From a virus (taxonomy: Duplodnaviria; Caudoviricetes): a DNA stretch of 38,811 bases. Each line of letters starts with the position of its first letter. Position 1 is the first letter of the stretch. The stretch spans positions 1 through 38,811 of IMG/VR virus record IMGVR_UViG_3300008255_000238; one strand, 5' to 3'. The translations under genes and the position numbers were made by a program. Under the pieces are notes generated by a model, which ran no database searches, was not told where the DNA came from, and saw only the letters and a program-made list of their open reading frames with translations. Positions 1 through 38,811 of this stretch are shown piece after piece.

Positions 1-71
1 GTACCACTGGTTGCCGGAGACGGCGCAACTGAGATAGGAACCCTTGAAAGATCGGTATGAATGCGTGTCAT
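1..71 (-). CDS. N-terminus of a gene running off the left edge (MTRIHTDLSRVPISVAPSPATSG...), probable late/structural protein
   Basis: ATG at 71 lies 6 nt downstream of the -10 box of the repeated TTGCCT promoter; frame is open to position 1. Confidence 0.6.
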   Translation of the reverse strand, partial: MTRIHTDLSRVPISVAPSPATSG

Positions 72-77
72 ACCTCA

Positions 78-107
78 ATGATAAAGTAGAAAACTATGTT
101 AAGGCAA
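78..107 (-). promoter_or_regulatory. Repeated late-type promoter, copy 1 (TTGCCT-N18-TATCAT-N6-ATG)
   Basis: Shares TTGCCTTAACATAG with three other copies; the -35 overlaps the last codons (TTG CCT TAA) of the upstream GT gene. Confidence 0.7.
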
Positions 108-1748
108 GAGATATTTTATATTATCCCATCCGGGAACAGTAGTACTTTCGGTCCACCCTTGAGTAAATCTTTGATTTCTGAATTGATCCTTTCTCCATCT
201 TGAAGGAGTGAGATTCCCTTCATGGCGAATATCAATATTAGGATATTTTGATTGATAACTATCTGAAGTAAGATCATCAACTCGCTCAGCTCTGTGATGT
301 GTTCCCGGCTCAAAACCCATTGCTCGAACATACTTTCCATAATCCTCCACTCCATCCTCAACTAAACGAACCGAAAGGAGTCGCACGCGCTCCCGATAGT
401 GCTTTATAAGCGTTTCTCGGTAAGCACACAAACCACTCAACTGCTGAAGTCCGTTCACATACAACGCATGGCCATCTGATGCCCTCACTCTCCAAACGTT
501 TGTATTGTAATAAATCACATCCATTCGAGGAGGAACAAAATCAAAGTGTGATGGATGATAGAGAACATCATGCTCACAAAAGAATATAACTTCAGCTTTG
601 GAAGCCTCAAGTCCTGCAAGGATCTGCTTTGCCATTGTTAAATATCCCGGAGCCTCATTCAAAACAATATTATGACCGAATTTAATTGACTTGAGTGAAA
701 CACTTACGATATGCTTCTCTTTGATTCCCTTCTTAATTTGACTGCGACACGATTCAAGTATTTTTTCATCCCCTTCATTATGCGTGTAGTACACAACGCC
801 CTTCGATGGCTTTGCCTTTGCTTCCTTCACCTCATAGTCCCATTCTGGGACCGGAGCAAATTTATTGAGAAGCCATTTGAGATCGTGTATCTTGTTTGGA
901 TTGTCCCATTTATTCTCAAGAAATAATTCTCGAGAATACTTTCGTGCTTTGTCAACATCAGATCCGGAAAGAGGAAAGCTGAATCCAAAGTCTCCTCCTT
1001 GAGTCCGGAACATATGCGAATACCACGTTTTCTTATTCACCATCACCTCACCACCTGAAAGCCATGTCTTGCACGCCACCTCGACGCCTTGCTGACCCCA
1101 TGATCCATGAGCCTCGTCACATATGTCAAGCGCCCAATATCTCTCGCGTGTGAGCATAAAACATGAGCCCTGAAGCGATAGAGTTGGAGCAACGTCCGGC
1201 TTTCCTTCCGGTCTATTATTAAAGTCTCCCCAATATTTGAAATGAAGAGTCTTGTCGAAGCGATAGAACGTTGAACGACGAGTCCAGCGTGGTTCCATTT
1301 TTATATCTCGCTTTACAGGCTTTCCGCATTGTAAACAACCTTTCTTTGGTGTTGGTCCTTGATATTGTCTGTGACCATTCTCACAAAGCCAATCGAATGC
1401 ATGGAGATTGTAGAGCATAGGAACCATCGTATAATGATCTTTCATCTCTGCCATCATCTTGACATCAAATCCTTCATCGACCATACAATGCGCATCGATC
1501 TTCATCACATACTTTGCTTGAGATAGTCGAACGCCTTCATTCTGAGCTCCACGTTGACCAATTGAAGTATTGTGATAAATTACAGTTACATTTGGAGCAT
1601 CAGGAACGCCGGGATTTGCCCATTCACCATCAAGAATGACGATGATTTCAGTTTTTCCTCTGATATTTTTGAGTATATTCTCAACTGTGAGAGAAAGAAA
1701 CATTTCATTCCGCGCGGGGATAATGATGGAGAGGTCATAATTTACCAT
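99..1748 (-). CDS. Two-domain GT-A glycosyltransferase: N-terminal GT2/GT27 (ppGalNAc-T)-like domain with Zn-ribbon-like insert, plus a C-terminal second GT-A domain
   Basis: LSIIIPARNE start, DAHC (DxH) metal motif, WGQQGVEVACKTWLSGG...SHMFR motif; CENGH...CLQC insert; C-terminal VIFFCEHDVLY motif. Confidence 0.85.
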   Translation of the reverse strand: MVNYDLSIIIPARNEMFLSLTVENILKNIRGKTEIIVILDGEWANPGVPDAPNVTVIYHNTSIGQRGAQNEGVRLSQAKYVMKIDAHCMVDEGFDVKMMAEMKDHYTMVPMLYNLHAFDWLCENGHRQYQGPTPKKGCLQCGKPVKRDIKMEPRWTRRSTFYRFDKTLHFKYWGDFNNRPEGKPDVAPTLSLQGSCFMLTRERYWALDICDEAHGSWGQQGVEVACKTWLSGGEVMVNKKTWYSHMFRTQGGDFGFSFPLSGSDVDKARKYSRELFLENKWDNPNKIHDLKWLLNKFAPVPEWDYEVKEAKAKPSKGVVYYTHNEGDEKILESCRSQIKKGIKEKHIVSVSLKSIKFGHNIVLNEAPGYLTMAKQILAGLEASKAEVIFFCEHDVLYHPSHFDFVPPRMDVIYYNTNVWRVRASDGHALYVNGLQQLSGLCAYRETLIKHYRERVRLLSVRLVEDGVEDYGKYVRAMGFEPGTHHRAERVDDLTSDSYQSKYPNIDIRHEGNLTPSRWRKDQFRNQRFTQGWTESTTVPGWDNIKYLLP

Positions 1749-1749
1749 A

Positions 1750-2604
1750 TTATTCTTTCTGTTTTGGTTCTGAGAAGTCTGTATTTATCCAAGTATCATT
1801 CTTTTCGAGAATAGCTCTAGTGATCTCAGGAGTATAACCTGCTGATTCAGCCCATGAGCACCATGCATATATATCTTTTGGAATGCATTTGCTGTTGAAT
1901 CCACGCTTCTCAGGATAGATAAACGTCCACCATAAATTGAAACGAGGATCATCACCGTACACGGCATCTCGAACGGTGTAATAATCTATATTATGAGCTT
2001 GGCATACATCATATAATTCCTGCATCTGAGCCACTTTGAAAGCAATTGCTCGATTCTCAGTAAGTTTGATAATCTCAGCCGCATAATTTGTAACTTGACG
2101 AATATTCACATTTGAATTGAATACTGTTGTGTATAGTTCGATTAGTTTCTCACGATTACTCTTATCTCCGCCAATTATCATAAACGGACTCTTTACAGTA
2201 TCAAGAAGAGGATGCTGAGGAGTTTCACCCAAATATTCAGGTTGCATACAAATATTTTTTTCATACTTTGCTTTTAGAAAGTCACAATCGCCCGGATTCA
2301 TTGTTGATCGTATGACAATAAGATCAGTCTCAAGCCATGCAACAACTTCCTCAACGATTCTTGTATCTAGTTTTGATTGATTAGGGCATGGAGTCGGAAC
2401 ACATACGAAAGCGATATCAGCCTTTTCATTGATTTCTTTTTGCAATGCTTCCTTGTCCTTTTCCCATTGTATTTTATTTCCCTCAACATATTCATCGTCT
2501 GAATCGCGAACAACTCCCGGAGAATAAATAAGAGCATCAGGAAATAATTCCAACATTGCTCCTCCTACCCATCCAAGACCAATTATTGCGACTTGTTTTT
2601 TCAT
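1750..2604 (-). CDS. UDP-glucose/GDP-mannose dehydrogenase family protein (NAD-binding and central domains only)
   Basis: IIGLGWVG Rossmann motif, FVCVPTP, VIRST, PEYL, AEIIKLTEN, D.R, GFNSKCIPKD catalytic Cys motif. Confidence 0.85.
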   Translation of the reverse strand: MKKQVAIIGLGWVGGAMLELFPDALIYSPGVVRDSDDEYVEGNKIQWEKDKEALQKEINEKADIAFVCVPTPCPNQSKLDTRIVEEVVAWLETDLIVIRSTMNPGDCDFLKAKYEKNICMQPEYLGETPQHPLLDTVKSPFMIIGGDKSNREKLIELYTTVFNSNVNIRQVTNYAAEIIKLTENRAIAFKVAQMQELYDVCQAHNIDYYTVRDAVYGDDPRFNLWWTFIYPEKRGFNSKCIPKDIYAWCSWAESAGYTPEITRAILEKNDTWINTDFSEPKQKE

Positions 2605-2921
2605 TTTGCATCCTCCTGCTCAGGAAGAACGATCCAATCAATAGCATTGAGATCACCATCATTGACCAACCATTTGTGATATTCACCTCTTATAAATATT
2701 TGAAGGAATCCTTCAAATAGTAATCCGAAATTATCATTTGTTTCCCATGCAAGGCGAGTAACTCTTTTTTTATTAAGAACCTCACGCATAGCATCGGGAA
2801 ATGATAATTCCTTTGGACCTTTGTTTGGAACCGGAGATGTTTTCAGAGTTGAAAGAGGATCATTTCCCAACATTTCATTTGTAACTGGAGATGTTGGATA
2901 TTTTGGAGTTTGATTATCCAC
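2601..2921 (-). CDS. DUF2829 / Thoeris anti-defence Tad2-like protein
   Basis: LSFPDAMREVLNKKRVTRLAW...WLVNDGDLNAIDWIVL pattern; likely GTG start at 2921 preceded by AAGGAG. Confidence 0.65.
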   Translation of the reverse strand: MDNQTPKYPTSPVTNEMLGNDPLSTLKTSPVPNKGPKELSFPDAMREVLNKKRVTRLAWETNDNFGLLFEGFLQIFIRGEYHKWLVNDGDLNAIDWIVLPEQEDAK

Positions 2922-3087
2922 GTTTAACTCCTTTCGATGGAGAAACTGAAGCATCCATATTGCGTTTTTTATCCATATACTCATCAATAGCTCGGCGAAT
3001 ATGTTCCGATACGGTAAGTTCTTTTTGTTTTTTCAAAAAGACGTTTTGTTCTTGTGTTAAGTAAAAATTCTTTCTAATCATTGTCAT
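2914..3087 (-). CDS. Ribbon-helix-helix DNA-binding protein, 57 aa (not in ORF track)
   Basis: Hand translation MTMIRKNFYLTQEQNVFLKKQKELTVSEHIRRAIDEYMDKK...; RKNFYL strand and SEHIRRAIDEY helix are typical of CopG/RHH; own promoter directly upstream. Confidence 0.75.
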   Translation of the reverse strand: MTMIRKNFYLTQEQNVFLKKQKELTVSEHIRRAIDEYMDKKRNMDASVSPSKGVKRG

Positions 3088-3095
3088 ATACACAC

Positions 3096-3125
3096 ATCAT
3101 ACTTATAAAATATATGTTTTGTCAA
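3096..3125 (-). promoter_or_regulatory. Sigma70-type leaderless promoter TTGACA-N18-TATGAT
   Basis: Near-consensus boxes 8 nt upstream of ATG 3087. Confidence 0.7.
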
Positions 3126-3129
3126 GTCT

Positions 3130-3828
3130 TTATTGATGAATCTTATCTCCGGATCCGGGCTTAACTGTGTATGGTTCCGGCTTCACATAGAACCATGAGC
3201 GAGTATTATCTCTTATGCCAAGAGGCGGCTTTGGATCTGATTTGGAGCCGAGAATGAACAATGGGCGTATGTTGTAGCTCTTGCAATAACCTTCAACAGC
3301 CATCGGAACATGCATCAAATATCCCGGATCATTCCTAAGTATATAGTCATGTCCTGCAACAATTCCGCCCACCTTGACCTTTTTATGCCATTCGGCGATA
3401 TCGTTGACTGTTTGTTGAAATTCGTGATTGCCATCTATGTATACAAAATCAAGAGAGTCATCTCGAAAATCCTTTACAACATCTGTTGAAAATCCTTTTA
3501 TGAGCGTGCATCTTCCATCAAGCATATATCTTGAAAGTCGAGCTTCAGCCTTACGTTTCAATTCATCAACCTTCTCTTGACTCACATGATCCCGATACCC
3601 TTTATATGCGGTCCATGCATCAATTGAATAGAGATCGAGCTTTGGATTTGCTTTGAGAAGTATCTCTGAATAAATACCGGTCTCAACTCCCATCTCAGCC
3701 CCAATATTAAATCCTAGCTCTGCAAGAAGCAAAGCAAATGTATTTCTATTTGTTCCGAGTATTTCAATGACATCCTCATTGAATGAATTTAATCCGTACT
3801 TATCACATATATATCCAAGTGTTTTCAT
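3130..3828 (-). CDS. Class I SAM-dependent methyltransferase (Methyltransf_24-like), possible sugar O-methyltransferase
   Basis: GAEMGVETG motif I, LYSIDAW, SLDFVYIDGNH, VKVGGIVAGHDY; ATGA coupling with the upstream gene gives start 3828. Confidence 0.85.
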   Translation of the reverse strand: MKTLGYICDKYGLNSFNEDVIEILGTNRNTFALLLAELGFNIGAEMGVETGIYSEILLKANPKLDLYSIDAWTAYKGYRDHVSQEKVDELKRKAEARLSRYMLDGRCTLIKGFSTDVVKDFRDDSLDFVYIDGNHEFQQTVNDIAEWHKKVKVGGIVAGHDYILRNDPGYLMHVPMAVEGYCKSYNIRPLFILGSKSDPKPPLGIRDNTRSWFYVKPEPYTVKPGSGDKIHQ

Positions 3829-4724
3829 AGTATTTTTTTGTAGAAATTTGTAATAATAGTCTCCCAATTAAATCGTTCTCTAATTATTGCTTTCTCATCG
3901 TATGATACCCAAAAAGATCCATGATTAAATATCTCCTCGAGATTGTCAATGACCTCTTCCCTTGGTCCTTCCGGTATGAATATAGCAAAATCTCCAAACC
4001 ATTTTCGATAATGAGGACGATCAAATACAATAGGTCTTGCCCCGCACAAAGCCCCCTCAATCACCGGCAATTCAAATCCCTCAACTCTTCGAAGACCTGA
4101 GATGTATTTGCATTGACTCCAATATTCGCCAACCTCTTCATCACTTATGTTTTGACGGCAAACAATATCCGGACCACGGCGAAGTTCGTGTCCTAGAAAA
4201 AACATCTCTCGATCCACTCTCTTTGATGCAAACGCGCATTCGCGAACACCTTCTGCAAGAGCGTGCTGAGAAGTTGCTCCGATTATGAATCTTTTAATTA
4301 CTGATGTCTCTTGAAATACTTCCGGATCAACTCCAAGAGGAGCGTAATAAAATTCAAAAGGAGGATATTCCATCATCTTCACTAAACTGGGATAATCTCC
4401 AAGATCTTCTTTCAGTAATTGAAAAAGATCATAATAACTCCAAACAACCTTTGCTCTTGACCACATATATTGCCAATCGGTCGCTTTTGGACGAATAGTT
4501 GATCTGACCGCATACTGAATCATCGCATATGGTTTTCCCTTCTTCTGAAGCTTATTTGTTTGCCTCTCTATTGCATCATGGCGTCCATATGCATGGATTA
4601 TCTCAAAATCAGATTCAGATTGATTATCAACCACCTGAACGTTACTAGGAGCGTATTTATAGAGTGCATCAACTACACGCATGATTCCTCGAGAGTCTGT
4701 ATCTGGATTAAGGTATAGTTTCAT
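3825..4724 (-). CDS. GT-B fold glycosyltransferase (GT4-like)
   Basis: PLGVDPEVF and EGFELPVIEGALCGARPI (EX7E) motif, terminal RFNWE; ATG 4724 preferred over GTG 4766. Confidence 0.8.
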   Translation of the reverse strand: MKLYLNPDTDSRGIMRVVDALYKYAPSNVQVVDNQSESDFEIIHAYGRHDAIERQTNKLQKKGKPYAMIQYAVRSTIRPKATDWQYMWSRAKVVWSYYDLFQLLKEDLGDYPSLVKMMEYPPFEFYYAPLGVDPEVFQETSVIKRFIIGATSQHALAEGVRECAFASKRVDREMFFLGHELRRGPDIVCRQNISDEEVGEYWSQCKYISGLRRVEGFELPVIEGALCGARPIVFDRPHYRKWFGDFAIFIPEGPREEVIDNLEEIFNHGSFWVSYDEKAIIRERFNWETIITNFYKKIL

Positions 4725-4731
4725 AATTTTT

Positions 4732-4828
4732 TGGGCAAAAAAGTCGGAGTCGAACCGACTACACACAAGTATTTACCGGTTGCTTGTGATCTCCTTTGCA
4801 GGCGAGGTCACCGTGCCTCTCTTTTGCC
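4732..4828 (-). ncRNA. tRNA-like RNA (atypical tRNA or tRNA mimic)
   Basis: Perfect T-arm GTCGG-TTCGACT-CCGAC, acceptor CAAAAGA/TTTTTTG followed by C-CCA, GG-containing D-like hairpin; central part non-canonical; fills the gap between two GT genes. Confidence 0.6.
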
Positions 4829-4829
4829 A

Positions 4830-5726
4830 TTACTTTTTTCTCACTTTCTCAATAAGCTCCGGAGTCCATCCGGGGACCGACATGAATCGTTCAATAAGCC
4901 ATGCAAGATCATGGACTGCACCTTCTAGTCTATTATTGAACCAAAAATCATCACAATATGCATTACCCTCCTGTACCTCTCTTTTATTGAGAAAATACAT
5001 CCGACCATATCTCGGTCCCTTGTGGAGATGTGCATACCATGTTTTTTTGTTTGTTATTACCTTACCACCGAGAAGCCATGTCTTGAGTCCTATTTCCTGA
5101 GCTTCCCGGACAAATGTTCCATATCCAACTTCGCTCATTCCTTTGAGCCGATCTGTGTAATGAGAGCGCGTCATAAACCAACAGGATCCTTGAAAGGTTA
5201 TATTCTCATCAATATCATACTTGGGATCTGTTCTGTCGAGAGCTCTCTGAGTCCAGATGTTTCCTTTTGCTCCATCATCTGCCGGAGAGGATAAGTATTC
5301 ATAGTCAACATCGGGCTTTCCTACATCTTGAATACACCAATTTTCAGCATCGAGGCGCTTCCGGCGAGGAATAACGATCCAATTATCCGGAGAGTTGGTC
5401 ATTTTAGAATAGATATATCCTTCCCTCTGAAGTTTCACATCAAATCCCTCATCAAACATCACATGAGCGTCACATTTCAAAAGATATTGACCTCTTGCAA
5501 TTCTGACTGCAGAGTTTATTACTTCTCGCATACCGCGAGACACACCAAAATGAAGATAATGAACGCGGGGATCCTCAACGATTTCTTCGGCAGGACACCA
5601 ATATCCATCAAGGACCGGAATTACTTCAATAGGACCTTTAGCTTTTGCAAGGATATCTTTTATAGTATGTGAAAGGAAGATCTCATTTCGAGCGGGGATG
5701 ATAATAGATATTAGATTTGTGGTCAT
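4830..5726 (-). CDS. GT2/GT27 (ppGalNAc-T)-like glycosyltransferase, paralogue of the N-domain of 99..1748
   Basis: ISIIIPARNE, CDAHVMFDEGFD, FQGSCWFM, EIGLKTWLLGG...NKKTWYAH. Confidence 0.85.
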   Translation of the reverse strand: MTTNLISIIIPARNEIFLSHTIKDILAKAKGPIEVIPVLDGYWCPAEEIVEDPRVHYLHFGVSRGMREVINSAVRIARGQYLLKCDAHVMFDEGFDVKLQREGYIYSKMTNSPDNWIVIPRRKRLDAENWCIQDVGKPDVDYEYLSSPADDGAKGNIWTQRALDRTDPKYDIDENITFQGSCWFMTRSHYTDRLKGMSEVGYGTFVREAQEIGLKTWLLGGKVITNKKTWYAHLHKGPRYGRMYFLNKREVQEGNAYCDDFWFNNRLEGAVHDLAWLIERFMSVPGWTPELIEKVRKK

Positions 5727-5768
5727 AATATACTCATATTACCATAATGGGGAACGATTAGTCAACTA

Positions 5769-6674
5769 TTATATGAACGGTGTCGGCGATGGTGATGGGC
5801 TCGTTGAGCTTGAAGGGCTGGCTGATGAGCTAGGTGATACCGATGCCGATGGACTCTTCGATGCCGATGGAGAGACTGATGGACTCGCTGAGCTTGATGG
5901 ACTTACTGAGGCTGATGCCGAGACTGAAGGACTTGATGAGCTCGATGGGCTGGCTGATTTCGATGCGCTAGATGATGCCGAACCTGATGGGCTGATGCTC
6001 CTTGAGGCTGAGCTTGATGGACTGACTGAAGGACTTGATGAGCTCGATGGGCTGGCTGATTTCGATGCTGATCCTGAAGGTGATACTGATGCGCTTGGTG
6101 ATATTGATGGACTCTCAGAAGATGATGGACTGACCGATGTGCTAGGTGATACCGATGCACTAGGTGAATTAGATTGCGACGCACTTGGCGATACCGATGC
6201 TGAGGCTGATACCGATGGACTCTCAGATCCCGATGGACTTACTGATGCACTCGAGGAAAACGATGCACTTGATGAACTTGATGGACTAACTGATGCTGAG
6301 GCTGATGCTGATGGGCTTATGGATGCTGAAGGTGATGGTGAGACTCCGGCTGTATTGCCAACCAATGACCAAACAGCAGAATCTTCATCTCCAATATTTA
6401 CATATAGATTGCGACCAATTTCATCAAGATCTCGAAAGAATGCTCCTTGTTTGAATCCTTCATAACCTGTTGGAAGAGTATTTCCTTCAGCTTCTAAAAT
6501 GTTTCCATCTGAATGGGTTCTGATTACTGCGTTTACTTGATATGGTCCGCGAGCGTCAATGAAAGCTTGCTCAGATGTAGAAAGAAGCCCGCCTGCTGTC
6601 TCTTTAGCGAGAATTTCAGTAAGCCTGAGCTGTGTTGCTAATGGTAACGCCGTATTGACTTCGAATATTGCCAT
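5769..6674 (-). CDS. Probable virion/decoration protein with about 190-aa Ser/Pro-rich C-terminal tract
   Basis: Lies downstream of the capsid gene; GAFFRDLD...LYVNIG...W module typical of phage structural proteins, then (SPSxSx)n to the C-terminus. Confidence 0.6.
   Translation of the reverse strand: MAIFEVNTALPLATQLRLTEILAKETAGGLLSTSEQAFIDARGPYQVNAVIRTHSDGNILEAEGNTLPTGYEGFKQGAFFRDLDEIGRNLYVNIGDEDSAVWSLVGNTAGVSPSPSASISPSASASASVSPSSSSSASFSSSASVSPSGSESPSVSASASVSPSASQSNSPSASVSPSTSVSPSSSESPSISPSASVSPSGSASKSASPSSSSSPSVSPSSSASRSISPSGSASSSASKSASPSSSSSPSVSASASVSPSSSASPSVSPSASKSPSASVSPSSSASPSSSTSPSPSPTPFI
5778..6345 (-). repeat. Coding repeat (SPSxSx)n, including an exact 45-bp duplication (5922-5966 = 6024-6068)
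   Basis: Direct reading; serine at alternate positions. Confidence 0.95.
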
Positions 6675-7236: not shown

Positions 7237-8358
7237 TTAGAGAGTGAATATTGCGAACAGTTCAGCCGCTTGATGGCGTCTAGAGTCTGCAACCTTAGCT
7301 CCGTATACGAATAGATCCTTGAATGCTGATCCAAAGTTTCCGATCAGATCTTCTTCAATTGTTGCTTCAAGTAATTTCTCAGCGAATGTGATCCAGTTCT
7401 TATGTCCGCCGATAAGATGATAACCGTCTGTATTGTCTCCGGTTAGTCTATTACTCACCATGATGTTAAATCCTTTGAGTTGAGTTAACATTCCTTTTTT
7501 GACTAATTCTGTATATACCTCTGGTACATGGAGTGTGATTCCTGATGCGCCATTAGTTACAACATCTTCAAATTCAGGCGGTACTATTAAGAATCTTCCT
7601 TGTGCTGGGACTGAGTTATATCCATTCTTCTCAGCTTTATCAAGTACCAATTTCAACTTACCAACTTGAGTTAGAATATTGCTTGTGGTGATCGTGACAG
7701 GTGTGACTGCTTCAACTGTGAAAGTTGCGCCTGCTTCAATTGCTCCGCCTGTGTAGGCTGAGGTCGTGTCATCAAAGTCGTCTTCAATAACCATGTTTTC
7801 AGTATCAGCAACAGATTTGACTCTGTACCAAGTTGAATGTCCGGTTGCTTGGAATCCTCTCCCAACCATTGCGGCGGAGAAAGCTGTTCCCGATCCGACT
7901 ACTGCTCCGGTTCCTGTGGTTATTGTTACAGTTCCAGTCGTGACATCTGTCCCAACTCTGTTTCCTGCGCCAATATCTCCATAGAATCCAAGAACGTATA
8001 GGTCCATGTTTTTATTTCGTTCGTCTGCTTTTTGAGTAACAACTTCAGAATGAGGATCCTTGATGTAGGAAGCCCAATTATCAATTGTAAGCTCTTGCCA
8101 ATAGAATGATTTCTTTTTTTCTATTGTGAGAACGCAATTGTCTTCATAGAGATTATCCGGTGAGCCAAGATTAGCTCCGGTATAATTTTTTTCAGTTATA
8201 CGATTAATATTCAAGATATTCAGGACTGAACCAACCTTGTTGATTTCACCTTCATATTGTCTATTAACTACATAATCCAAAAGAGAGATGTCGTACATCT
8301 CGATTAGTAAGCGGTTTGAAAAGCCCTGTGCTAGTGTGGTTGCTCGTGCTGATCCCAT
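7237..8358 (-). CDS. Major capsid protein (P22 coat-like HK97 fold) with inserted beta-rich domain
   Basis: VNRQYEGEI...G, VPAQGRFLIVPP, GFNIMVSN, FGSAFKDLFVYGAKV; follows portal and scaffold. Confidence 0.85.
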   Translation of the reverse strand: MGSARATTLAQGFSNRLLIEMYDISLLDYVVNRQYEGEINKVGSVLNILNINRITEKNYTGANLGSPDNLYEDNCVLTIEKKKSFYWQELTIDNWASYIKDPHSEVVTQKADERNKNMDLYVLGFYGDIGAGNRVGTDVTTGTVTITTGTGAVVGSGTAFSAAMVGRGFQATGHSTWYRVKSVADTENMVIEDDFDDTTSAYTGGAIEAGATFTVEAVTPVTITTSNILTQVGKLKLVLDKAEKNGYNSVPAQGRFLIVPPEFEDVVTNGASGITLHVPEVYTELVKKGMLTQLKGFNIMVSNRLTGDNTDGYHLIGGHKNWITFAEKLLEATIEEDLIGNFGSAFKDLFVYGAKVADSRRHQAAELFAIFTL

Positions 8359-20838: not shown

Positions 20839-21091
20839 ATTTTTTACCTTTCTTTTTACTGAACCAAATATTAATTTTTGTGAAAACGATTTTCCATCCG
20901 TTATTTATTAAGTTATCGAACCTTTTTCTCCAATCCCTTATGAGTCGTTCATAGCTCAGGATCAACCTTTTTTCTTGCTCCCGATGTTCTCGCAATTCTT
21001 TTCTCAGAGTGCTAATGCGTTTCTTCAATTTTTTTTCTTTTTGAGTTTTATCAACAAGGTCCTGTTGGATTTTTTTATACGCCGTTCTCAT
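20825..21091 (-). CDS. Basic coiled-coil protein in the lysis cassette
   Basis: K/R/E-rich heptads; likely start 21091. Confidence 0.5.
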   Translation of the reverse strand: MRTAYKKIQQDLVDKTQKEKKLKKRISTLRKELREHREQEKRLILSYERLIRDWRKRFDNLINNGWKIVFTKINIWFSKKKGKKYGKP

Positions 21092-21977
21092 AAAGTATAT
21101 TTCGTAATTTTGTTCTCTTTTTTTGCCATGAATTTTTACCAATCCACCACCACGGTTTTCGAATTTCAGCGATCAATTCATTTAATATTTTTTCACAATC
21201 AACCGGAGCCGGAATTTCTTGGCTTGGTGAGACTGATGGAGACGGTGAGATGCTAGGACTCAAAGAAGCCGATGGTGAGAGAGATGCTGATCGCGATGCC
21301 GATGGGCTTGGAGACGATGATCTGCTCTTTGAGCTTGATGGACTTATGCTAGGACTCTCAGAGGATTGTTCTTGTCTAGGAAGTCCATACTTTTTGAATT
21401 GTATTGCATCTCCAAAAAACCAACACCCATCTGTTTTCCCGACAATACCCGGAACTATTTGTGAGCTGGTCCATTGTTGCATTGCCATCATTCCCCATTG
21501 ACCTGTATTTACTTCACTAATAGGAACATATGCAGCAAGCCATAGAGCAAAGCTTCCATCAATGACCGGTTGCCAATCAAATTTCTTTACTTGTGATTGA
21601 TTCAAATATATGAAGCATTTGATTCCTGTTCTATAACGGACCCGATTGAGAAAGTCATTACACCATTGAACAACTGGAAAGGGATTTGAATTTGGTTCAT
21701 AATCTAAGCAAAGAACCTCACCTTCCTTGAGCGGAAATACAGTATTAACAAACCAATCAGCCTCATTTAGAGCGCTATTATTAAGATCCGGACGGGCAAA
21801 ATGGTAATATCCGACAAGTAATCCAACACGACGAGCTTCTGCTCTATTTCTTGAAAATTTTGGATCAATGTAACCGTTTCCTTCTGTAGCTTTTATAATA
21901 ACGAAGTTTGAGTTATTTTTATAAATATCGAAATCAATGTTTCCTTGCCAGCTTGATATGTCATTTCCTACAATCAT
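21075..21977 (-). CDS. GH25 muramidase endolysin with Ser/Pro linker and basic Trp-rich C-terminal helix
   Basis: GNDISSWQG, IKATEG, GYYHFA, LDYE, LWLAAY, QWTS; SP tract at about 21222-21365. Confidence 0.9.
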   Translation of the reverse strand: MIVGNDISSWQGNIDFDIYKNNSNFVIIKATEGNGYIDPKFSRNRAEARRVGLLVGYYHFARPDLNNSALNEADWFVNTVFPLKEGEVLCLDYEPNSNPFPVVQWCNDFLNRVRYRTGIKCFIYLNQSQVKKFDWQPVIDGSFALWLAAYVPISEVNTGQWGMMAMQQWTSSQIVPGIVGKTDGCWFFGDAIQFKKYGLPRQEQSSESPSISPSSSKSRSSSPSPSASRSASLSPSASLSPSISPSPSVSPSQEIPAPVDCEKILNELIAEIRKPWWWIGKNSWQKKRTKLRNILYENGV

Positions 21978-22875: not shown

Positions 22876-25800
22876 TTATTTTTTCCTGCTCTTTATTTCA
22901 GCAAGTGTTTTTTGTGCAATTTCAGTTTGAAGTGTTTGAATTTTCTTGATACGATCAGCTTTCTCCTGCGGATTCATATTTTCTGACTGTTTTATTAGAT
23001 CAACTGCTTTGTTGAGTGTTGAGAAGGTATCAACAGCTCCTGTGTATGTAATAGCGTCAATAGCGTTTGGATGGTTCTTGGCATACGCCTTCGCTTTCTC
23101 AACATCTCCATCTTTGACCATTTTCTTGATATAGGTCCATTCAGCGTTTGTTTGTGCGTATTCGTTATATACACGGTTAACTGATTCTGATCCTGAGCCT
23201 ATCGGATCCCGAACCATGAACGCCTTTATTACTGGCATCTCTTCAAGTGTCTTTGCTGGCTTTGGTGGAGTGACTACAATTCCGGTCCCTACAAGTATTG
23301 CATCCATTCCGCTCATTGCGTATTTTCCAAGCCCTGCGCCATAACCATTGACTAGATTGTCAATCTTTGCCGGAGAGTAATTTACTACTTCTCCAAGTAT
23401 TTTTGACGTCTCAGTTGTATATGGACCGTATTGCTGAGCCGATGGATAAGATTCTTTTCCACGACTTACAATCGGACGATCCAAGAATATTGAGTAGTTT
23501 GATAAATTTTCTACTATCGGAATAATTGCTGTTGGCATCCAGCCCGGAGTAAAGCCATCCGCGATATTATTTGCAAGTTCATTCATTATGGTTGGATCCT
23601 TTGTATCTATAGCCTCCATCACGCGTTCCGGTACTGATGCAAAGAGTGACCCGAGCTCGAATGGCTTTGGGATTCTCCAAATATGATCAGGAGTCATTAT
23701 TATCCAAAACATATTCTTTTGCCATTGTGGTATTTCCTTCCATCTCTTATCTTTGCGATTTGCAAGATAGAGGAGGATTGATGGGAGTGTTAAGAGAAAT
23801 AACGCTTTCCATAATGTTTGAAACGGTCGATTCTTGAAACTTCTAACCATTGTGTCGGTTCCATTGAGATTTGCTCCAAAAAATGCAATGATTCCATTAG
23901 CTCCACGCGTCCACGAACCAAGTCGATTAAAGTCAAGAGTCACGTTTCGAGAAGCAAATGCTGATTCAATAGGATCTTTTCCACGAGCAAGCGCATTCCT
24001 CATCTCTCCAAGTCTTGTTCCGGCTTCTCCTAGTTCTGAGAGCATTTGAAGAACTTTGAGGGGATTTTTTATATTTGTGATAATCCTTTCACCATTAGTC
24101 GCAAATAGTTCCTTCATATCCTTTTGAAGTCCCTTGCGGTCCATAGAAACAAGCATCGCCTGTTCTCCTCCTCCTGCCTTCCATAAATTATATGTATCTC
24201 TTCCAAATTTCTGAGGTTGTATCAATTCCCATACTCCACGAATCAAGTCAACTCCGGGAACAAATCCATGTTCTGAGTAAACGCCGGCTGTGAATTGATC
24301 TCGCAATGGATTTCTTACTGAGAAATCAGGGGATAAAGTTGCTCCGGCTCTTAGAGCTTTTGCCGGAAATCCAAGAATCTTCATAATCATCGAGACATCC
24401 TCAACGTTCATTCCTTGAATTGACTTGAATAGATCCGGATCAACTTCAAAGACTTTTTGTTTATCGCCCATATTGACATTGAGCATATTTGGTCCGGTTG
24501 CATAGGTTGGTCTGAAAAGAGTGACCATCATTTCACCAAGCTCTTCAGGAAAGTCTATATCCTCAAGCTCAGTTCCTTTTGTTACCTTATCCATTACCTC
24601 CTGAACGTTTACCGTGACAGGCTTCATAGGCTTGACCACTTCTTCAAACAACCGTCCGAGTTCGTGATTTGCACCTGAGACGTTTGCCATTGCGACTCCT
24701 ATGTTATTTCGTTCAGCGGCGTTTATGATTGCGTAGGTGTCTTTTATATCACTTTCAAGAGGATCGATAATCTCACGCTCTGATCCTTTTATTTTCTTAA
24801 TAGGATTGTTCAAATTTCCACCGATTTTTGATTTGCCAAGGAATTTCGCTCCACTCTCTTCCATTACGCGATAGAACGGTACATGGTATTTATTGAACTT
24901 TTTGATTTTCTTCAATCCCTCTTCTCCAATGAGTCCATTATCTTTTGCATAATCAAGCAATGCATCTTTGTATTGCCTTCTCTCTTCGGCAACGCGTTCA
25001 AAATTTGGATATTTGTTTTCAAGCTCTGTAATTGCGGTCTTCGCGTCCTTGAGATCGATTCCTGATACTATTTCACGAGGAGCAAGGTCGTTGACTATGC
25101 GTTGAGATACTATGTATACTCTGAAATCATCGAGATGGTCCATGACCGGATCCATGATCTCGGTGTACCCTTTACCGGTGAAATTCATTCTAGTCTTACC
25201 ATCTTTGTCTACCTTCCAGAACTCTTTTCCAAATGTTCCACCGTTTAGAAATAAATCAGCTTTTCCCATCCATCCTTTGAGATTGCGAGCGAGAACATAT
25301 GGATCTTGAGGTGAAGGTAACTTCTGACCTGTTTGTTTTTTATATAGACTCGAAAATTCATTGAGAGGGTGAAGGTCGTCGAGTGTTAGTGTATAAAGCT
25401 CATGTAATTTATTTACAACACGATCCTTGAGAGGTCCGGGCTTTTCTCCTCCAATTGACAGATGAGAAAGTATCTTTGCAACTGCTGGCTGTTGGTTCCA
25501 GCGTTTGAAATCTTCTGTTGCTGTATTTATCACATTATCAACTTCCGGAATCTCTTTTATCTTCTCATTGAACACTTTGTCAAATTCCGGTCCCCATTGA
25601 TTGATCTTCTCGGTCTGACCGGTCATCCTGAAGCGCATGTATTCAGCGAAAGCTTCCTTCTTTTGTTTCTCAGGCTGTCCTGAATAGGATACTCCATATT
25701 CGCTCATTAGAAGTTCGCGTTCTGTTATTGAAATATCTTTGGAGAAACCGATTGTATCATCCAAGTAATGAGCCACTTCATGGAATATTGTATTGAGACC

Positions 25801-28800
25801 TCCTGATTTGATGCGAACGACTTTATTCTTTGGACTATATATACCAATTGCTCCGGCATGGCGAAATTTTCCCCTTCTTATCGGAACGTTGAGCTTTTTG
25901 GATAGTTCTTTTGCGATTTCTGATTGTTTGATTATTTTATCAGTCTCTTTTTGTGCCACTTCTGAGAAAGGATTCTGAAGATTCTTTGGATTGAATCCCA
26001 ATACACCCTTATCATCTGAGATCCGCATCTGTTGTGTTCTGCCTTTGAGAGCATCAACGTCAATCTTTACCTCATCGCCTTCTTTTATATTATTTGTTGA
26101 GATCTGCAATGCTTCCGGATTGAGAGTAAAATGAACATTCTCTCCATCAAATACGAGGTTTTTATCTTTATCAACTTTGAGGACCGGATTGTTTCTCAAT
26201 TCAGAACTATTATCAACCAATATCTTGAACTCTGCCTTGCCGATACTTGGTCTTATATATACCATTTCCGAGCTGTCTCTCTTTGTTTTCCATACTGTAG
26301 CCGGAAGATCGAGCTTTCTGATCTCTTTTGAAACCTTATCCGGAGTATCAGCCTCACTTGGACCAATGGATAATTGTTGTGGCACTCCCCCGCCGGTATT
26401 ATCGGGAAGAGGGGGGTTAACTTCTTGAGAATTAATCTCAACGGGGGGGTGTTTCTTTAGAAAGTTTGGTGGATTGTTGTATCGCTCTATAAGAGCCAAT
26501 ACAAATTCATTATGATATACATGATTATGGGCGAGAGATAAAGCGGTATTGAGCATTTCCTGATCCGGATTTGGATCAGTAAGCGCGTCCATACCATTAT
26601 CAACGAGTTCTTTATACTTGGCTGTGGTTGTTTTCAGATCAGCTTCCTTGAGCGTTGCTAGATTCTCAAGAACTTTATCGGTTAACTTTCCCTTTGGAGT
26701 AAAAAATGCCAGTTGCGATTCTGTTTGTTCAGGATCAAACATTGAGACATCGTTTTGAGCTTCGATCTTTATTTCTGAAGGTAAGAGAGGAATTTCTCCT
26801 TCTTTATAGAACCACGGATGAGCCGCTCCATAACCTGAAGAGCTTACTCTGAGGGCTTCTCGGACCGTTTCAGTCGACTGTCCGGATATCTCTCTTTCAG
26901 TCCCGCTTGGAGATTCTTGCGCAATTTGCTCGCCAGTTTGTTCTCGATCGGATCTGAGGGCTTCATATTGTAATTTTGTGATTTGTTGTTTTTCATATGC
27001 GTTTTCTGTCGCGTTGGCTATCGCCTCCGCTAATATACTCCTATCATACAGATGTTCTTTTATTTTGTCAAATGATACTTCTGAATGTGATTGATCTGAA
27101 GTATTCTCAACAAATGTAAAAGTTACCTTCGAATTAGTCTTATATTTATTATACGCTTTGATTATATTTTTTTGTGCATTGATGTGAGACTTTAGGAAAT
27201 ATCCTTCTGAGACGACTCGTCCCTCTTCTCCAACACGTTTCAAAGCTCCATCGGTCCACGCTTCAGCCGGATTGCGAAATGTAAAAGCAACGTCAACCTT
27301 ATATCCTTTGTTAAGCGCTTTTTGAATATCTTTTATAGCTGAATTATTTGAGAATGTAGTATCAAGAACAATTGAATATTCATCTTTTAATGGCTCGCCT
27401 TTTTGAATTGCGGTTGTTTTTCCGGATCCTGACCCGCCGGATGTGAGCAATACTATATTGTTCTTTATTCCTTGCTGAGTATCGAGAAGGTCATTATATA
27501 CAATCTCCTTTGCCGTTCCTGTTGCTCGTGCAAGCTCTCCGGCATTGTGACCCTGATATCCTTCAAATAGAGTGAGAGCAAGATCAGGACTGACTTCATT
27601 TTCAAAAGCCTGCTCATACTCGCTGATAAACTTCTCCGGATCGTTTGTTATTTTTGTGAATGCTTTCTCTTCTAGGGGATTCTTGAATACTGTTGGAGTA
27701 TTGATCTTCATGGTTGGCTCTTTGATTCCCTTGGCTTCATTATATGCTTTGGTAAGCTCTTCTTTTGAATATCCTATTTGACCACTTGTTTTAATGTCCG
27801 GCGCTTCTCCCTTGATCTTTGCTTTGATTTCCGGAGTGATCTTTATTCCTTGTTGAGTTGTGGTTTTCTCTAAAATATCGAATGTTTCTATCGAGCTAGG
27901 ATTATCTTTTGCCCATTTGACCATATCCTTATTTGATAATTGCCCTTGACCCTCGAACTTACTAATTGCAATTGCCTTGAACTTCCCATCTCCAAGCACA
28001 TCCGTAATAATCCAAGACTCAGTGCTTTTTGCTATTTCTTCTCCAACTTTTAGATCTTCTATTTCTAGTCTTACTTTTCCTCCGGGCTTTTGTATAAAAA
28101 GATCGGTCTGACCTTTTTCAATAGGAAGTCCCAAATCAATCACTTCAACCTTCTCACCTGTCAATTTCTCAACAATATTTTTAACCTGCTTATCATAGAG
28201 ATTGACAGCCCACTCTCCGCCAAACTTGAGTCCTTCTCCGGAAAGTTTTCCGGTCTCATCAGCCATAATCTTGTCTGCGAGACCTTTGCCAAGGACCTCA
28301 TCAAGTTTTTTACCGACTGCGTTCATCTGTGCGGGTGCGGATAACACCTTTCCATCTTTGTCGACTTCAACCAGTAGATTATAATTTTGATTATTTGGAA
28401 TAATTTTAATTTGCTTTATTTCTTTAGGCTCATGTGATGCTCTGTTTTCTAATTTCCAACTGACATCTTTAACGTGTGTCGCCAAATTATACCTCGCGCT
28501 CGTTTGTTCTCCATTAATCCATACAAAGTATTCAGAGCCATTTGTAATTGCCTCAATGAGTGCTCGCTTGACTGCTAGTTCTTGCCATTTGTTTCCTTGA
28601 ATTAGTGAGTTGAATGGTACACCTGCTCTTTTCTTATCCAATACCCTTTGAATTGCTTTTTCCTTTGTGGGATATTCTGATTTTGCTATTTGCAATTCAT
28701 TATCGGGAACTTTGTATCTCCAAAAAAATTTATCTTCTCCTATGAATTTTATCTCATCCTTTTTATAGCTCGTATTAAATCCCTGTTTTCTCCCCTCTCT

Positions 28801-33695: not shown

Positions 33696-34844
33696 TTATG
33701 AGAGTTTCAGATCGTTTTTGAATATAAAAAATATAAAATCAAAATGCCATACTGAGGTAGACATGCCATTGATTGCTCCGTATACTGAAATTCCTGTTTC
33801 GGTCAATTTGACATTTGCTCCATATTGTACCGAAGCTCCTGATCCAACAAAAGGACAGTATTCGTATACGCCAGTTGGAGCCCCAATATATACTGAAACA
33901 TAACATTCAATAAAAGGATAATATCCAAGATTGTGAGAATATGAACCAACACAAGAAATATCACCCGTGCTTGCATCTATCTCAAGAGCAAGGGATTGTT
34001 TATCAAAATATTTTAGTGTTCCATATTCTGAACTAAACTTTAATTTTTCAATATCTGAGTTTGTAAGAACATTTACTTCGGGCTTTCCGATCTTCATTAC
34101 TGCTGAAATTGGATCGGGAGCGGGAGAAGGAGATGGGGACGAGCTTGCTGATGCTGATGGACTTGGAGAGGCTGAACTTGAAGGGCTTGCTGATGCTGAT
34201 GGAGACTTTGATGGACTGGCTGAACTTGAAGGCGATAATGATGCGGATCCAACCTCATATGTAATTGTTAAAAGAGGAGTATAGCTTGGATAAGAAGAAT
34301 AATAACCAAAATTGATATATTCATCATTGGCTGTTGCGTCATTATAGAAATATATTCCCAATGCGTTTCCACTAGACCAACCACCTCGATCAATAATTTC
34401 TTGTATTACAGATGATATGTCTGGACTATCATAGGGCTGATGTTGACTGGTTGGATTTATGTTGGCGGTCCAATCAACAACGGCGGTTGTGTGAGTCCTT
34501 GTTCTTGCCGTGTCGGGAGTTCCTGTATTAAATTCTGCTGTATTATCTTCATCTACCCCAACAATTTTATAATCAATATCGCTATTCCATCCCCAACTAC
34601 TACTTGCATAAAAAGTTATTTTTGCAGAAGTGATAACTGCACCACTTGGAATAGTTACTCCAGTAAACCTGAAACTTCCATTTATTATCCCTCCGTAATA
34701 CTCCCCCGGAAATGGTTCTTCCTCGGCATACTTAGCAAGGGATGAAACATTTTCAGTCGCGACCCAATTCGGAGTACGGATTGAAATATAATTATCTCGA
34801 ACCATCCTCAATCCAGAATCAATTTGTTTTGTAAATGTTGCCAT
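33696..34844 (-). CDS. Tail-associated protein: DNRLRE/CBM-like beta-sandwich, Ser/Pro linker, C-terminal tail module
   Basis: FRFTGVTIPSGAVITSAKITF, SPDISSVIQEI...GWSSGN; SP tract at about 34113-34248; HNLGYYP shared with the next gene. Confidence 0.6.
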   Translation of the reverse strand: MATFTKQIDSGLRMVRDNYISIRTPNWVATENVSSLAKYAEEEPFPGEYYGGIINGSFRFTGVTIPSGAVITSAKITFYASSSWGWNSDIDYKIVGVDEDNTAEFNTGTPDTARTRTHTTAVVDWTANINPTSQHQPYDSPDISSVIQEIIDRGGWSSGNALGIYFYNDATANDEYINFGYYSSYPSYTPLLTITYEVGSASLSPSSSASPSKSPSASASPSSSASPSPSASASSSPSPSPAPDPISAVMKIGKPEVNVLTNSDIEKLKFSSEYGTLKYFDKQSLALEIDASTGDISCVGSYSHNLGYYPFIECYVSVYIGAPTGVYEYCPFVGSGASVQYGANVKLTETGISVYGAINGMSTSVWHFDFIFFIFKNDLKLS

Positions 34845-36163: not shown

Positions 36164-37813
36164 TTAGGTGAAAAAATATCGTTGTCGGTAAATCTCCGGA
36201 GTAAGATTACCAACCGGAATGAGTTTTAATCGAGGTTCGAATATTTCACCCTTTGCTCCTATCTTGAACGTGGCTTTCTGACCGCCTGCATAAGTATATT
36301 GAGTATTAGTTGATCCGGCAAGTGTTGATTGAATAAATTCACCATCCTTGTCTGCTCTATACCAAAACTCAACCTTTGCTCCATCAGGAAGCGGAGCCAT
36401 GAGAAATTCTGCTGTTTTCCATTCAGTTATTTCAAGTGTTTTCTTAACCGGAGCCCTCAGATCAATTCCTTCATATATTGCCGTTGCTTTGTTATTTGGA
36501 TCAACTGCCATTACACCAAATGTTGATCCGATCTGATATGAGAATAAAGTTGTGCCGTCAACATTCACTACTGCTCCAATCTCATCAGCGTCAAATTGAT
36601 ACTCAAGATTCAAAACAAAAGGATGATCTTTGCGTCTTCTGCCAAATGTATATACTCCTCCGCGACCTGTATCAGCTCCAAATACTCCCATGAGAGCCAT
36701 ATTGCCAATGGATTGCTTATCGATCCATGAGAGGGCTGTCTGTTCCCAATCGAAAACGTTTATTTGTGATATTTCGTTTACCATTCCGCCGGGATTGACT
36801 CGTCCTCCTCCGGGTAGAATTTTAGTTGCAATTGAATTTGAAAAGTCTGCATAGAATATTTCACCTTGATCTCCAACCTGCATTAATGGAATTTCTGAAT
36901 CAACAGCTCCATTCACGCCTTTTGTTGGATCTGAAGCACGATATGTTCCAATAACAGCTCTTCCATTACGTTCAACAAGAGTTTTTCCTAGATTTCCCGG
37001 AATAAGATCGAGCGCTTCGTTAGTATAAGAATCATCATATGCACTCATAGCAAGGAAGGATCGATTTGTAATCATTACCGAGCCACCCACTTGGACCATT
37101 GTGTGATAATCAGAATCGGAAAGGTTAGTCTTTGGAAACTCATCACCTTGGACGGTTCCTGCGGCATCAACATCGTTCCATGATGTATCTCCGGGCAATT
37201 CTTTTCGATGAAGCTCTGTTCTTGTAGCCCATTCAAGATATATCTTTCCTCCTGATGATGGCTTTTCACATGCTCCGGTTAATTGCGCTTTTTGATCGTA
37301 TACCTGAATCCAATATGAATCTGAATTTCGTTTATATATTTTGCCAGTCCTGCCGAAACCATACGTTCCACCATCTGTTGCTTTGACGAATGCAATAATC
37401 AGGTCCGTAAACACCGTTAACAAGCCCGCAGAGGGACTTGGAGATGGTGAGGTACTAGATGAAGGCGAAACTGATGCTGATGGACTTACTGATGCACTAG
37501 GGCTCTTTGATGCACTCGGACTCTTTGATGCCGATGGTGATGCAGGTGATGGACTTGGAGAGCTTGATGGGCTGACTGATGCTGATCCTGATGGACTTGG
37601 AGAACTTGATGGTGAAGTTGATCCGGATGGAGAAAGCGATGCACTAGGAGAATCATTAGTTACACCCTCCTCAATAAGAGCCTGACCTGCCGAAACAGTA
37701 TCTTTTAATTTTCTAATATCGAGATTCGCTCCGAATTTGAATGATCCGGGAATTCCTTTATCTTCATAATCCGCAAGACCGCCTCTCGATGAAACAATTT
37801 GATATACGCCCAT
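36164..37813 (-). CDS. Probable tail nozzle/stabilisation protein (beta-rich) with Ser/Pro insertion
   Basis: N-terminal GGL...NLD pattern, beta-rich body, SP tract at about 37428-37652. Confidence 0.55.
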   Translation of the reverse strand: MGVYQIVSSRGGLADYEDKGIPGSFKFGANLDIRKLKDTVSAGQALIEEGVTNDSPSASLSPSGSTSPSSSPSPSGSASVSPSSSPSPSPASPSASKSPSASKSPSASVSPSASVSPSSSTSPSPSPSAGLLTVFTDLIIAFVKATDGGTYGFGRTGKIYKRNSDSYWIQVYDQKAQLTGACEKPSSGGKIYLEWATRTELHRKELPGDTSWNDVDAAGTVQGDEFPKTNLSDSDYHTMVQVGGSVMITNRSFLAMSAYDDSYTNEALDLIPGNLGKTLVERNGRAVIGTYRASDPTKGVNGAVDSEIPLMQVGDQGEIFYADFSNSIATKILPGGGRVNPGGMVNEISQINVFDWEQTALSWIDKQSIGNMALMGVFGADTGRGGVYTFGRRRKDHPFVLNLEYQFDADEIGAVVNVDGTTLFSYQIGSTFGVMAVDPNNKATAIYEGIDLRAPVKKTLEITEWKTAEFLMAPLPDGAKVEFWYRADKDGEFIQSTLAGSTNTQYTYAGGQKATFKIGAKGEIFEPRLKLIPVGNLTPEIYRQRYFFT

Positions 37814-37849: not shown

Positions 37850-38811
37850 TTAGAGATCGTCTTGTGGGTTCTTGTGGGGATATTTTGGAGTGTATTCTGG
37901 GGTTGAAATATCTGGATAAACGTCATTGTAATTTACCGAGACTGAATCGTAACTATCTGAATATTTATTATCTGTTGCAAGGTATGTATTTTTGTATTGA
38001 GCAATAAATGATATGCGAATCTGATCGATCGAAAGCGTGTGTGTATCACTTGAATTATTCTGCTGATATACCCGGATCGCAATTTGTTCTTCAAAGTCAT
38101 AGTAATTGCTGTCGTTTGTTAGGATCTGAGCATCAAGGCTCAACTTCACATTTGCACCCTTTGTATTTTCAGAATCAATAGTCTCCCATGAAAGCGTTGT
38201 ACCATTCCATATCTGCAAATAAACGATTGAACTTGTTGGAGCATAGGATGATTTTACAACTGCCCGAATATTTATATCATCAACCCGATTCTCATTTCTC
38301 TTTTTGAATTGATGGATTAAGTAGTTGCCAGCTGTCCCTGCTAATCCAACAAACACATCGTCATTGGAATAAACATCTCCTTCTTCCAGAGTCGTATAGA
38401 TTCCTGAGAGATTAATCGTATTATTTGGTAGTGATCCATTCGCCTCTCTTGTAAAGTCATTTTCTGAGATTGCCGGACTTGGAGATGGTGATGGGCTATT
38501 TGATGGGCTATTTGACGAACTCTCAGAGCTTGATGCACTTGTTGATATAGAACTACTTGGTGATATTGATGGTGAATTTGAACTTGATGGTGATGACGAT
38601 TGGCTTGGACTCTCAGAATGAGAGGGCGATACTGATCTTGACAAACTCGAGCTAGGTGACTCCGATGCACTTGGTGATATTGAGGCTGAAGGCGACACAG
38701 AGGCACTTGGTGATATTGATGGAGAATCGGAACTACTAGGGCTTATTGATGCCGATGGTGATACTGATGGAGAATCGGAACTACTAGGGCTTATTGATGC
38801 CGATGGTGATA
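37850..38811 (-). CDS. C-terminal part of a Ser/Pro-repeat structural protein, truncated by the right edge
   Basis: Frame of 37850..38698 stays open to 38811 (SPSASISPSSSDSPSV...); C-terminal jelly-roll-like domain (LQIWNG...W...IAIRVY...IDQI). Confidence 0.75.
   Translation of the reverse strand, partial: SPSASISPSSSDSPSVSPSASISPSSSDSPSISPSASVSPSASISPSASESPSSSLSRSVSPSHSESPSQSSSPSSSNSPSISPSSSISTSASSSESSSNSPSNSPSPSPSPAISENDFTREANGSLPNNTINLSGIYTTLEEGDVYSNDDVFVGLAGTAGNYLIHQFKKRNENRVDDINIRAVVKSSYAPTSSIVYLQIWNGTTLSWETIDSENTKGANVKLSLDAQILTNDSNYYDFEEQIAIRVYQQNNSSDTHTLSIDQIRISFIAQYKNTYLATDNKYSDSYDSVSVNYNDVYPDISTPEYTPKYPHKNPQDDL
38717..38811. repeat. Exact 48-bp tandem repeat (16-aa unit) running off the window end
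   Basis: 38717-38763 is identical to 38765-38811. Confidence 0.95.

Follow-up and report, generated by a model that had tools for sequence, protein, structure and literature searches.

The virus record IMGVR_UViG_3300008255_000238 from an uncultured phage, which in its entirety (38,811 bases) is the window analyzed here, encodes a cassette of putative glycosyltransferase genes and five open reading frames (ORFs) with alternating-serine tracts, all on the minus strand. Two enzymes of the cassette resemble the eukaryotic polypeptide N-acetylgalactosaminyltransferases (ppGalNAc-Ts) of CAZy family GT27, which initiate mucin glycosylation in animals. Sequence comparisons and predicted structures suggest that these two soluble GT27-type enzymes likely place N-acetylhexosamine (HexNAc) on serines of the five tract proteins, which would result in a glycan brush on the phage particle. 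We assign this reading a probability of about 0.78.

GT27-like enzymes and alternating-serine tracts

The enzyme encoded at positions 4830..5726 is a soluble GT27-like glycosyltransferase of 298 residues, which belongs to a group named clade A and carries the residues D86-A-H88, E208, and H233. The second enzyme (99..1748, 549 residues) is composed of a GT27-like domain of clade B (residues 1-305) and a second GT-A-like domain (residues 312-549). The clade B domain contains the DxH motif, the sequences WGQQGVE and HMFR, and a cysteine-rich insert, whereas the second domain has an invariant E-x-D and resembles GT2-like models with template modeling (TM) scores of 0.67-0.69. The GT27-like domains of the two proteins are 36-37% identical. 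Both proteins match PF00535, and a single-sequence search of solved structures returned only a weak GT2 match; profiles were required for the GT27 signal. The profile of the 298-residue protein aligns with ppGalNAc-Ts over positions 6-252, whereas other GT-A matches span only the first 90-130 positions. The clade B profile matches GalNAc-T1 with an E-value of 1.1e-12, with WGGENLE and HVFR aligned, and the Foldseek E-value is 1.1e-14. The structures of the 298- and 549-residue proteins were predicted with predicted local distance difference test (pLDDT) values of 96.6 and 93.7, respectively. Among the Foldseek matches listed for the 298-residue model, every row is a ppGalNAc-T. The same model aligns with GalNAc-T1 with a VIA Z-score of 26.6 and a root-mean-square deviation of 2.9 over 272 residues; the Z-score for Toxoplasma T3 is 24.9, and that of the next fold is 18.5 (48,161 chains).

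At least 3,039 relatives of the 298-residue protein were found. A set of 283 distinct domains divides into clades A and B, each of which mixes viral and cellular sequences, and both clades are present in 92 of 155 loci, many of which are cut short. The DxH motif occurs in 100% of the 283 domains, and the C-terminal metal-binding histidine in 99% and 100% of the domains of the two clades. Clade B has invariant W-G, G-x-E, and H-x-F-R, with glutamine or methionine in place of the first glutamate of WGGE-x-x-E; clade A retains both glutamates and mostly has F in the place of W and HK in that of FR. According to published descriptions, DxH and the C-terminal metal-binding histidine are among the defining features of GT27 (PMC4202792, PMC11074326), and DxH is found exclusively in GT27 and GT60, two families of polypeptide Ser/Thr transferases (PMC7185993). 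No membrane segment was found in the enzymes, the maximum 19-residue hydropathy being 0.90 and 0.97. Neither has a C-terminal ricin-type lectin domain: the 298-residue protein stops at the catalytic domain, and the 549-residue protein continues into its GT-A-like second domain. Because the lectin domain and the membrane anchor are missing, the enzymes are described here as probably working like GT27 enzymes, and are not filed as members of the family. The original prediction that the GT-A pair is ppGalNAc-T-like is supported by profile, motif, and predicted fold, which agree. No GT60-type Pfam match was obtained among the 82 and 67 members of alignments A1 and A2, and viral BFVD models named 'Glycosyltransferase, GlcNAc' match at E-values of 1e-11 to 1e-12. 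The fold searches list no GT60 structure, so GT27 and GT60 are not ranked against each other, and GT60 is kept as a possibility. The cysteine-rich insert (residues 122-141 of the 549-residue protein; C122, C138, and C141 invariant in alignment A2) is present in 66 of 90 clade B domains and in none of clade A, and possibly forms a zinc site near the acceptor cleft.

In the tracts of the five ORFs, every other residue is serine. The likely head-associated protein (5769..6674) is formed of a conserved N-domain of about 110 residues and a 185-residue (SxSx)n tract at 5787-6341, in which all 93 of 93 alternate positions are serine. A GH25 endolysin (21075..21977) contains a 47-residue tract at 21222-21362 (24 of 24 alternate positions), and a tail-module protein (33696..34844) has a 41-residue tract between two domains at 34125-34247 (21 of 21). 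In a second, conserved tail-module protein (36164..37813), which may be nozzle-like judging from its position and size, a 73-residue tract with 39 serines is inserted at 37430-37648; its longest in-phase run has serine at 19 of 19 alternate positions. The fifth ORF (37850..38811) is truncated where the window ends and covers only the C-terminal part of a large tract protein, the gene of which follows the cassette in relatives; its tract at 38465-38809 has serine at 57 of 58 alternate positions. Tracts from the window and 80 enzyme loci are composed of 53% Ser, 17% Pro, and 1% Thr, and their commonest units are SPSVSP and SPSASV. The original claim of five Ser/Pro tracts holds, as the alternation is near-perfect and no tract arose in 200 shuffles of the minus-strand proteome of the window. 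Tandem Repeats Finder detected only short and weak DNA periods, except for a 2.2-copy 48-mer at the window end, indicating that the pattern is kept at the protein level. The tract serines are encoded by a mixture of TCN and AGY codons, and strict alternation written in both codon families points to selection for hydroxyl spacing.

The virion location of the window tract proteins is assigned from gene position and homologues; the tail protein at 36164..37813 and the N-domain of the head protein match no solved structure or PHROG. Fibre hints from Atlas scored below 0.9 and were not used. The tract proteins gave 319 non-tract segments in 113 clusters, where one protein can yield several segments, and 23 of the 76 scanned segments match a PHROG: 14 have head, tail, or virion labels, seven are labelled unknown, and two are hydrolase or peptidase. 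Tracts do occur on labelled virion proteins of other phages (14/76 segments). Further carriers are a protein at the scaffold position and a peptidase-like protein (L005:6763-7617; L054:8309-9220). Since tracts are found on these two proteins and on the endolysin, the tag extends beyond the outer parts of the virion. Relatives of the endolysin are limited to one distant match in the fetched loci, too rare for its tract to be compared.

Coupling of enzymes and tracts in viruses and bacteria

Among the best 80 of 280 viral relatives of the enzyme, 71 loci have a tract within 10 kb; 67 of 71 tract genes lie at most two genes from a GT27 gene, and 41 abut one. The remaining nine records are 13-76% complete, contain no pattern match, and break off at a GT27 gene or immediately past one. 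In the opposite direction, a DNA pattern for one tract unit identified at least 131 loci, which were reduced to one per contig (116), and the enzyme was found in 65 of the 115 contigs searched. Thirty records are at least 90% complete; 23 of them contain a real tract, 22 of which also encode the enzyme, and the enzyme is absent from all seven chance matches (Fisher p 3.9e-6, a value that ignores kinship). These genomes span 34-175 kb. The 53-residue 'tract' of L131, which is read antisense to another gene, was moved to the chance matches. Two genomes, G067 and G102, lack the enzyme, but their records stop inside or just after the tract block.

The major capsid protein (7237..8358) was used to pick relatives regardless of their cassettes or tracts. 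The best 80 of 377 matches, together with an earlier capsid search, were filtered for non-duplicate loci with at least 3 kb downstream; most sequences in the capsid alignment came from phages with the cassette, a possible source of bias in the set. Both the cassette and a tract are present in 35 of these relatives, neither is present in three, and none has one part alone. L423, a fourth case with neither part, is L091 again and was not counted. L091 (94% complete) and L389 (29 kb, with terminal repeats) lack both parts over the whole record, and the third, L392, is an 8-kb fragment. In a quick capsid tree, L389 and L392 are positioned on separate branches among cassette-bearing relatives with modest support. 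The tract of the tail protein at 36164..37813 is a clean insertion, which is absent in the cassette-less L389 and L392. The head protein of L091 has kept the N-domain (43% identity over 110 residues), and a non-repetitive tail replaces the tract. Searches with the terminase and portal found mostly short fragments (8 and 15 loci), which were excluded from the family count. The co-occurrence check suggested with the original prediction gives a positive result from enzyme to tract, from tract to enzyme, and among relatives in the phage family.

The system is not restricted to phages, and is also encoded in Patescibacteria chromosomes. From 144 relatives of the enzyme in prokaryote genomes, the best 74 loci were examined; 20 have a tract within 10 kb, and 48 of the other 54 were searched genome-wide, which identified 24 genomes with at least nine pattern matches. 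Of 251 genomes sampled at class level around one Woesebacteria genome, 17 are enzyme-positive and 234 enzyme-negative. The bacterial tract pattern also matches Thr-Pro tracts, and two thresholds are given: at least nine matches are found in 12/17 enzyme-positive and 6/234 negative genomes (5/233 negatives without G230, which is flagged unpublished), and at least 21 matches in 9/17 and 0/234, respectively. TatC is encoded in 9/17 enzyme-positive and 13/234 negative genomes. Loci mapped in seven genomes contain genes for a membrane protein, GT27-A, and tailoring enzymes, with GT27-B and a giant tract protein in six of the seven; TatC directly follows the giant tract protein in three. No capsid, portal, or terminase cluster matched within the seven mapped loci, the flanks of which hold housekeeping-like genes, as judged by eye. 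The giant tract proteins of the chromosomal operons have 1,100-1,960 residues, and no twin-arginine-like motif or signal peptide was found in the seven checked. The operon membrane protein has a twin-arginine-like motif, [RK]RxF[LI], in 28/28 cases and RRxF in 7/28. The putative glycosylated fibre is likely exported by twin-arginine translocation (Tat). Chromosomal operons, which also include fibre-like genes, were noted at L259, L268, L282, L314, L316, G138:C2, G164:C2, G239:C5, and G331:C3. The gene beside TatC in 12 cellular loci (L270:4888-5919) weakly matches the N-domain of a Bdellovibrio mosaic adhesive trimer (NF053851, E 6.6e-5, below the cut-off).

Accessory cassette genes and the likely host

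The other genes of the cassette encode a GT4-like (GT-B) glycosyltransferase with the EX7E motif EGFELPVIE (3825..4766), an S-adenosylmethionine-dependent methyltransferase (3130..3867), which has a weak TylF match and is likely a sugar O-methyltransferase, and a short nucleotide-sugar 6-dehydrogenase (1750..2604), which has the sequence GFNSKCIPKD and only the N-terminal and central domains. The content of the cassette as originally described is borne out by matches to PF00535 for the GT-A paralogues, phrog_2170 for the GT4-like enzyme, Methyltransf_24, and UDPG_MGDP_dh. The coordinates of the original inventory of cassette and tract genes also stood, but the cassette contains an additional Tad2-like ORF, one of the tract carriers is an endolysin, and the fifth tract gene is cut by the window end. 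The methyltransferase is present in 56, the dehydrogenase in 18, and the GT4 in 11 of the 80 viral loci, and the GT4 cluster in 10 of the 74 cellular loci; some loci (L022, L074, and L250) contain little beyond the two GT27-like genes. The GT4 and the dehydrogenase are accessory, and consequently 'uronic acid' is not a general trait: the methylated, uronic-acid-containing glycan that had been proposed may at best apply to the window phage. A C-terminal UDP-binding domain, usual in such enzymes, is missing from the dehydrogenase; this short form is a family trait, since all 25 cluster members have 217-318 residues. The 128-residue ORF at 2601..2987 is a passenger in the cassette with a weak match to Tad2, a Thoeris anti-defence protein (E 2e-4, below the cut-off), and its homologues occur in three viral loci and one cellular locus of the set.

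Family profile searches identified a terminase, a portal, the capsid protein (phrog_267), the GH25 endolysin, and a 2,943-residue LPD38 protein on the minus strand, and this gene content makes a short-tailed phage likely. The LPD38 protein (22876..31707) also contains a Zeta_toxin-like kinase domain (residues 1441-1522), and is probably an ejected polyvalent protein. The gene order in relatives is capsid, tract protein, GT27-A, tailoring genes, GT27-B, tract proteins, and tail genes, and therefore the window record was opened just after the cassette. A terminal repeat was looked for in the window, and none was found. Immediately beyond the cassette, positions 1..71 contain the opening 23 codons of a fibre-like gene, which share 91% identity with the beginning of a 456-residue ORF in L365. 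Contigs of run X1 match positions 1-5951 without differences; X1 may be the source sample, and hence is not independent. The host is likely a member of Patescibacteria: a contig titled Woesebacteria (L296) bears the same portal-capsid-tract-GT block, and Patescibacteria are named in the titles of 40 of the 74 cellular loci that carry the enzyme. A Shine-Dalgarno-like core precedes only seven of the 26 gene starts checked in the window.

Proposed glycosylation and its relation to known systems

In related phages, the enzymes and tracts are almost invariably retained or lost jointly, and in ultra-small bacteria the two are strongly associated; it is therefore likely that the phage sugar-coats its own particle by means of a portable serine tag. 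At a late stage of infection, HexNAc would be added to tract serines in the cytoplasm of the host. One or both of the GT27-like domains may initiate on serine, in a retaining reaction with Mn2+ and UDP-HexNAc; extension of the glycan may fall to the GT4 and to the second GT-A domain of the fusion protein, the dehydrogenase could supply a uronic-acid donor, and the methyltransferase could cap the product. The tract would be a portable tag grafted into unrelated proteins, and on the particle, head and tail proteins that bear it would make up a glycan brush. The two GT27 paralogues are fixed, and the variable tailoring genes that lie between them may diversify the glycan. The chromosomal module of Patescibacteria may glycosylate the giant fibre-like protein before its export, likely by Tat. 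Candidate purposes of the brush are attachment to the host or to the host of the host, shielding from proteases or adsorption, and mimicry of the host surface.

Several observations weigh against this reading. The coupling is largely physical linkage, the p-values ignore relatedness, and the joint absences represent three lineages. G015 (L229:16038-19265), a 33.8-kb phage genome rated as 100% complete, has a 508-residue tract and no GT27-like gene. Its tract protein (1,076 residues, encoded after the capsid gene) begins like the chromosomal tract proteins, and it is therefore possible that this phage relies on host enzymes. Conversely, the pattern finds no match in L037 (113 kb, 76% complete), which carries the cassette, and the cassette-bearing L036 lacks the tail-protein insertion. 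Among the bacteria, five of the 17 enzyme-positive genomes have fewer than nine pattern matches, and G274 has an SP tract but no enzyme. One tagged protein, the endolysin, is not a virion-module gene, and none of the five tested segments of window tract proteins matches a PHROG or has a structural label. The enzymes are only 15-20% identical to GT27 and have no lectin domain, and the enzyme was matched in none of 50,697 cultured-phage records.

The tracts could instead be unmodified stiff or flexible fibre spacers, linked to the cassette by inheritance, with the enzymes modifying a host surface glycan or protein for receptor masking or episymbiotic host support. The presence of the cassette in host-like chromosomes and the abutment of 41 of 71 tract genes on a GT27 gene agree with this, as does the interpretation of nucleotide-sugar genes of groundwater Patescibacteria phages as auxiliary host genes (PMC12911398). 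However, tracts also lie 15 kb from the cassette, in the endolysin, and, in conserved proteins, form clean insertions that relatives without the cassette lack; their strict alternation in both codon families points to hydroxyl spacing, the enzymes are soluble, and no flippase or polymerase was found among the 30 neighbour clusters scanned. We consider unmodified spacers unlikely. It is quite unlikely that the tracts are glycosylated with the GT4-like or a host enzyme adding the first sugar and the GT27-like pair only extending or decorating it. The GT4-like gene is present in the window, G015 keeps a tract without a GT27-like gene, and the first sugar on serine-rich repeat proteins is added by GtfA/GtfB (PMC8498110), but GT4 is rare at viral and cellular loci, L022, L074, and L250 contain little besides the GT27-like pair, and the DxH clade acts on polypeptides (PMC7185993).

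Some phage GT-A enzymes glycosylate bases, and the PHROG label of the methyltransferase family is 'DNA methyltransferase', so the cassette could hypermodify phage DNA against restriction, the tracts being unrelated. Nevertheless, the cassette is part of the block of late structural genes, none of the window genes and neighbour clusters scanned is labelled as a hydroxymethylase, TET/JBP, or nucleotide kinase, and both the coupling to tracts and the chromosomal operon with TatC would be left unexplained, which makes DNA modification highly improbable. Returning to tract glycosylation by the GT27-like pair, a broader version is tentative, at slightly less than even odds: a prokaryotic, cytoplasmic branch of the mucin-initiating GT27/GT60 clade would constitute a widespread two-component 'tag and write' system with a portable alternating-serine tag open to any protein and a hypervariable glycan-writing cassette flanked by the two GT27-like paralogues. 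Patescibacteria would export the tagged giant fibres by Tat, and phages would have captured the system for host-like mucin brushes, some, such as G015, keeping the tag alone and using host enzymes.

The module is real, widespread, and combines known kinds of components; it is described nowhere in the literature searched, which covered few subscription papers. If the proposal is true, mucin-type protein O-glycosylation machinery is at work in the bacterial cytoplasm and on virions, with natural enzymes numbering in the hundreds (at least 3,039 proteins; 280 viral loci) that are now annotated as generic GT2. The ppGalNAc-T-like enzymes are small and soluble; together with a portable peptide tag, they can be tested directly in E. 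coli and could find use in glycoengineering. The module also bears on the origin of GT27, and is a concrete candidate for the construction of the attachment surface of Patescibacteria.

Eukaryotic ppGalNAc-Ts (GT27; PDB 1XHB, 8V9Q, 4D0T, 8UHV) share with the phage enzymes the predicted catalytic fold (Z 26.6), the metal site of DxH and C-terminal histidine, the WG..E and H-x-F-R portions of the WGGE-x-x-E and HVFR segments (phage clade B), and predicted Ser/Pro-rich acceptors. In contrast, the phage enzymes have no ricin lectin or membrane anchor, are cytoplasmic, have 15-20% identity, and are encoded beside their putative substrates, and their predicted acceptors have strictly alternating serines rather than Thr-rich PTS domains. 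Cytoplasmic, lectin-free enzymes are also found in GT60. That family of Skp1/Gnt1-type polypeptide GlcNAc-transferases is the DxH sister family of GT27, and occurs in prokaryotes and protists (PMC7185993). The use of phage-encoded glycosyltransferases is shared with mycobacteriophages such as Che8 and Rita, in which they put glycans on virion proteins (PMC11256854). The window system differs in that its enzyme has no cultured-phage relative, its predicted acceptors are inserted tracts on many proteins, and its genes are in the structural block. The loci of serine-rich repeat adhesins have the accessory SecA2/Y2, where those of Patescibacteria often have TatC. These adhesins (Fap1, GspB, SraP, and PsrP) share alternating-serine tracts and linked enzymes with the window system, and are glycosylated in the cytoplasm, as is predicted here; in the chromosomal version, likewise, a giant tract protein is accompanied by an export gene. 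No GtfA/GtfB or accessory Sec label was found among the window genes or 30 neighbour clusters. Whereas the adhesins are primed by GtfA/GtfB (PMC8498110), the system described here has a predicted GT27-like primer and proline-rich tracts, and its phage version is probably used on virions.

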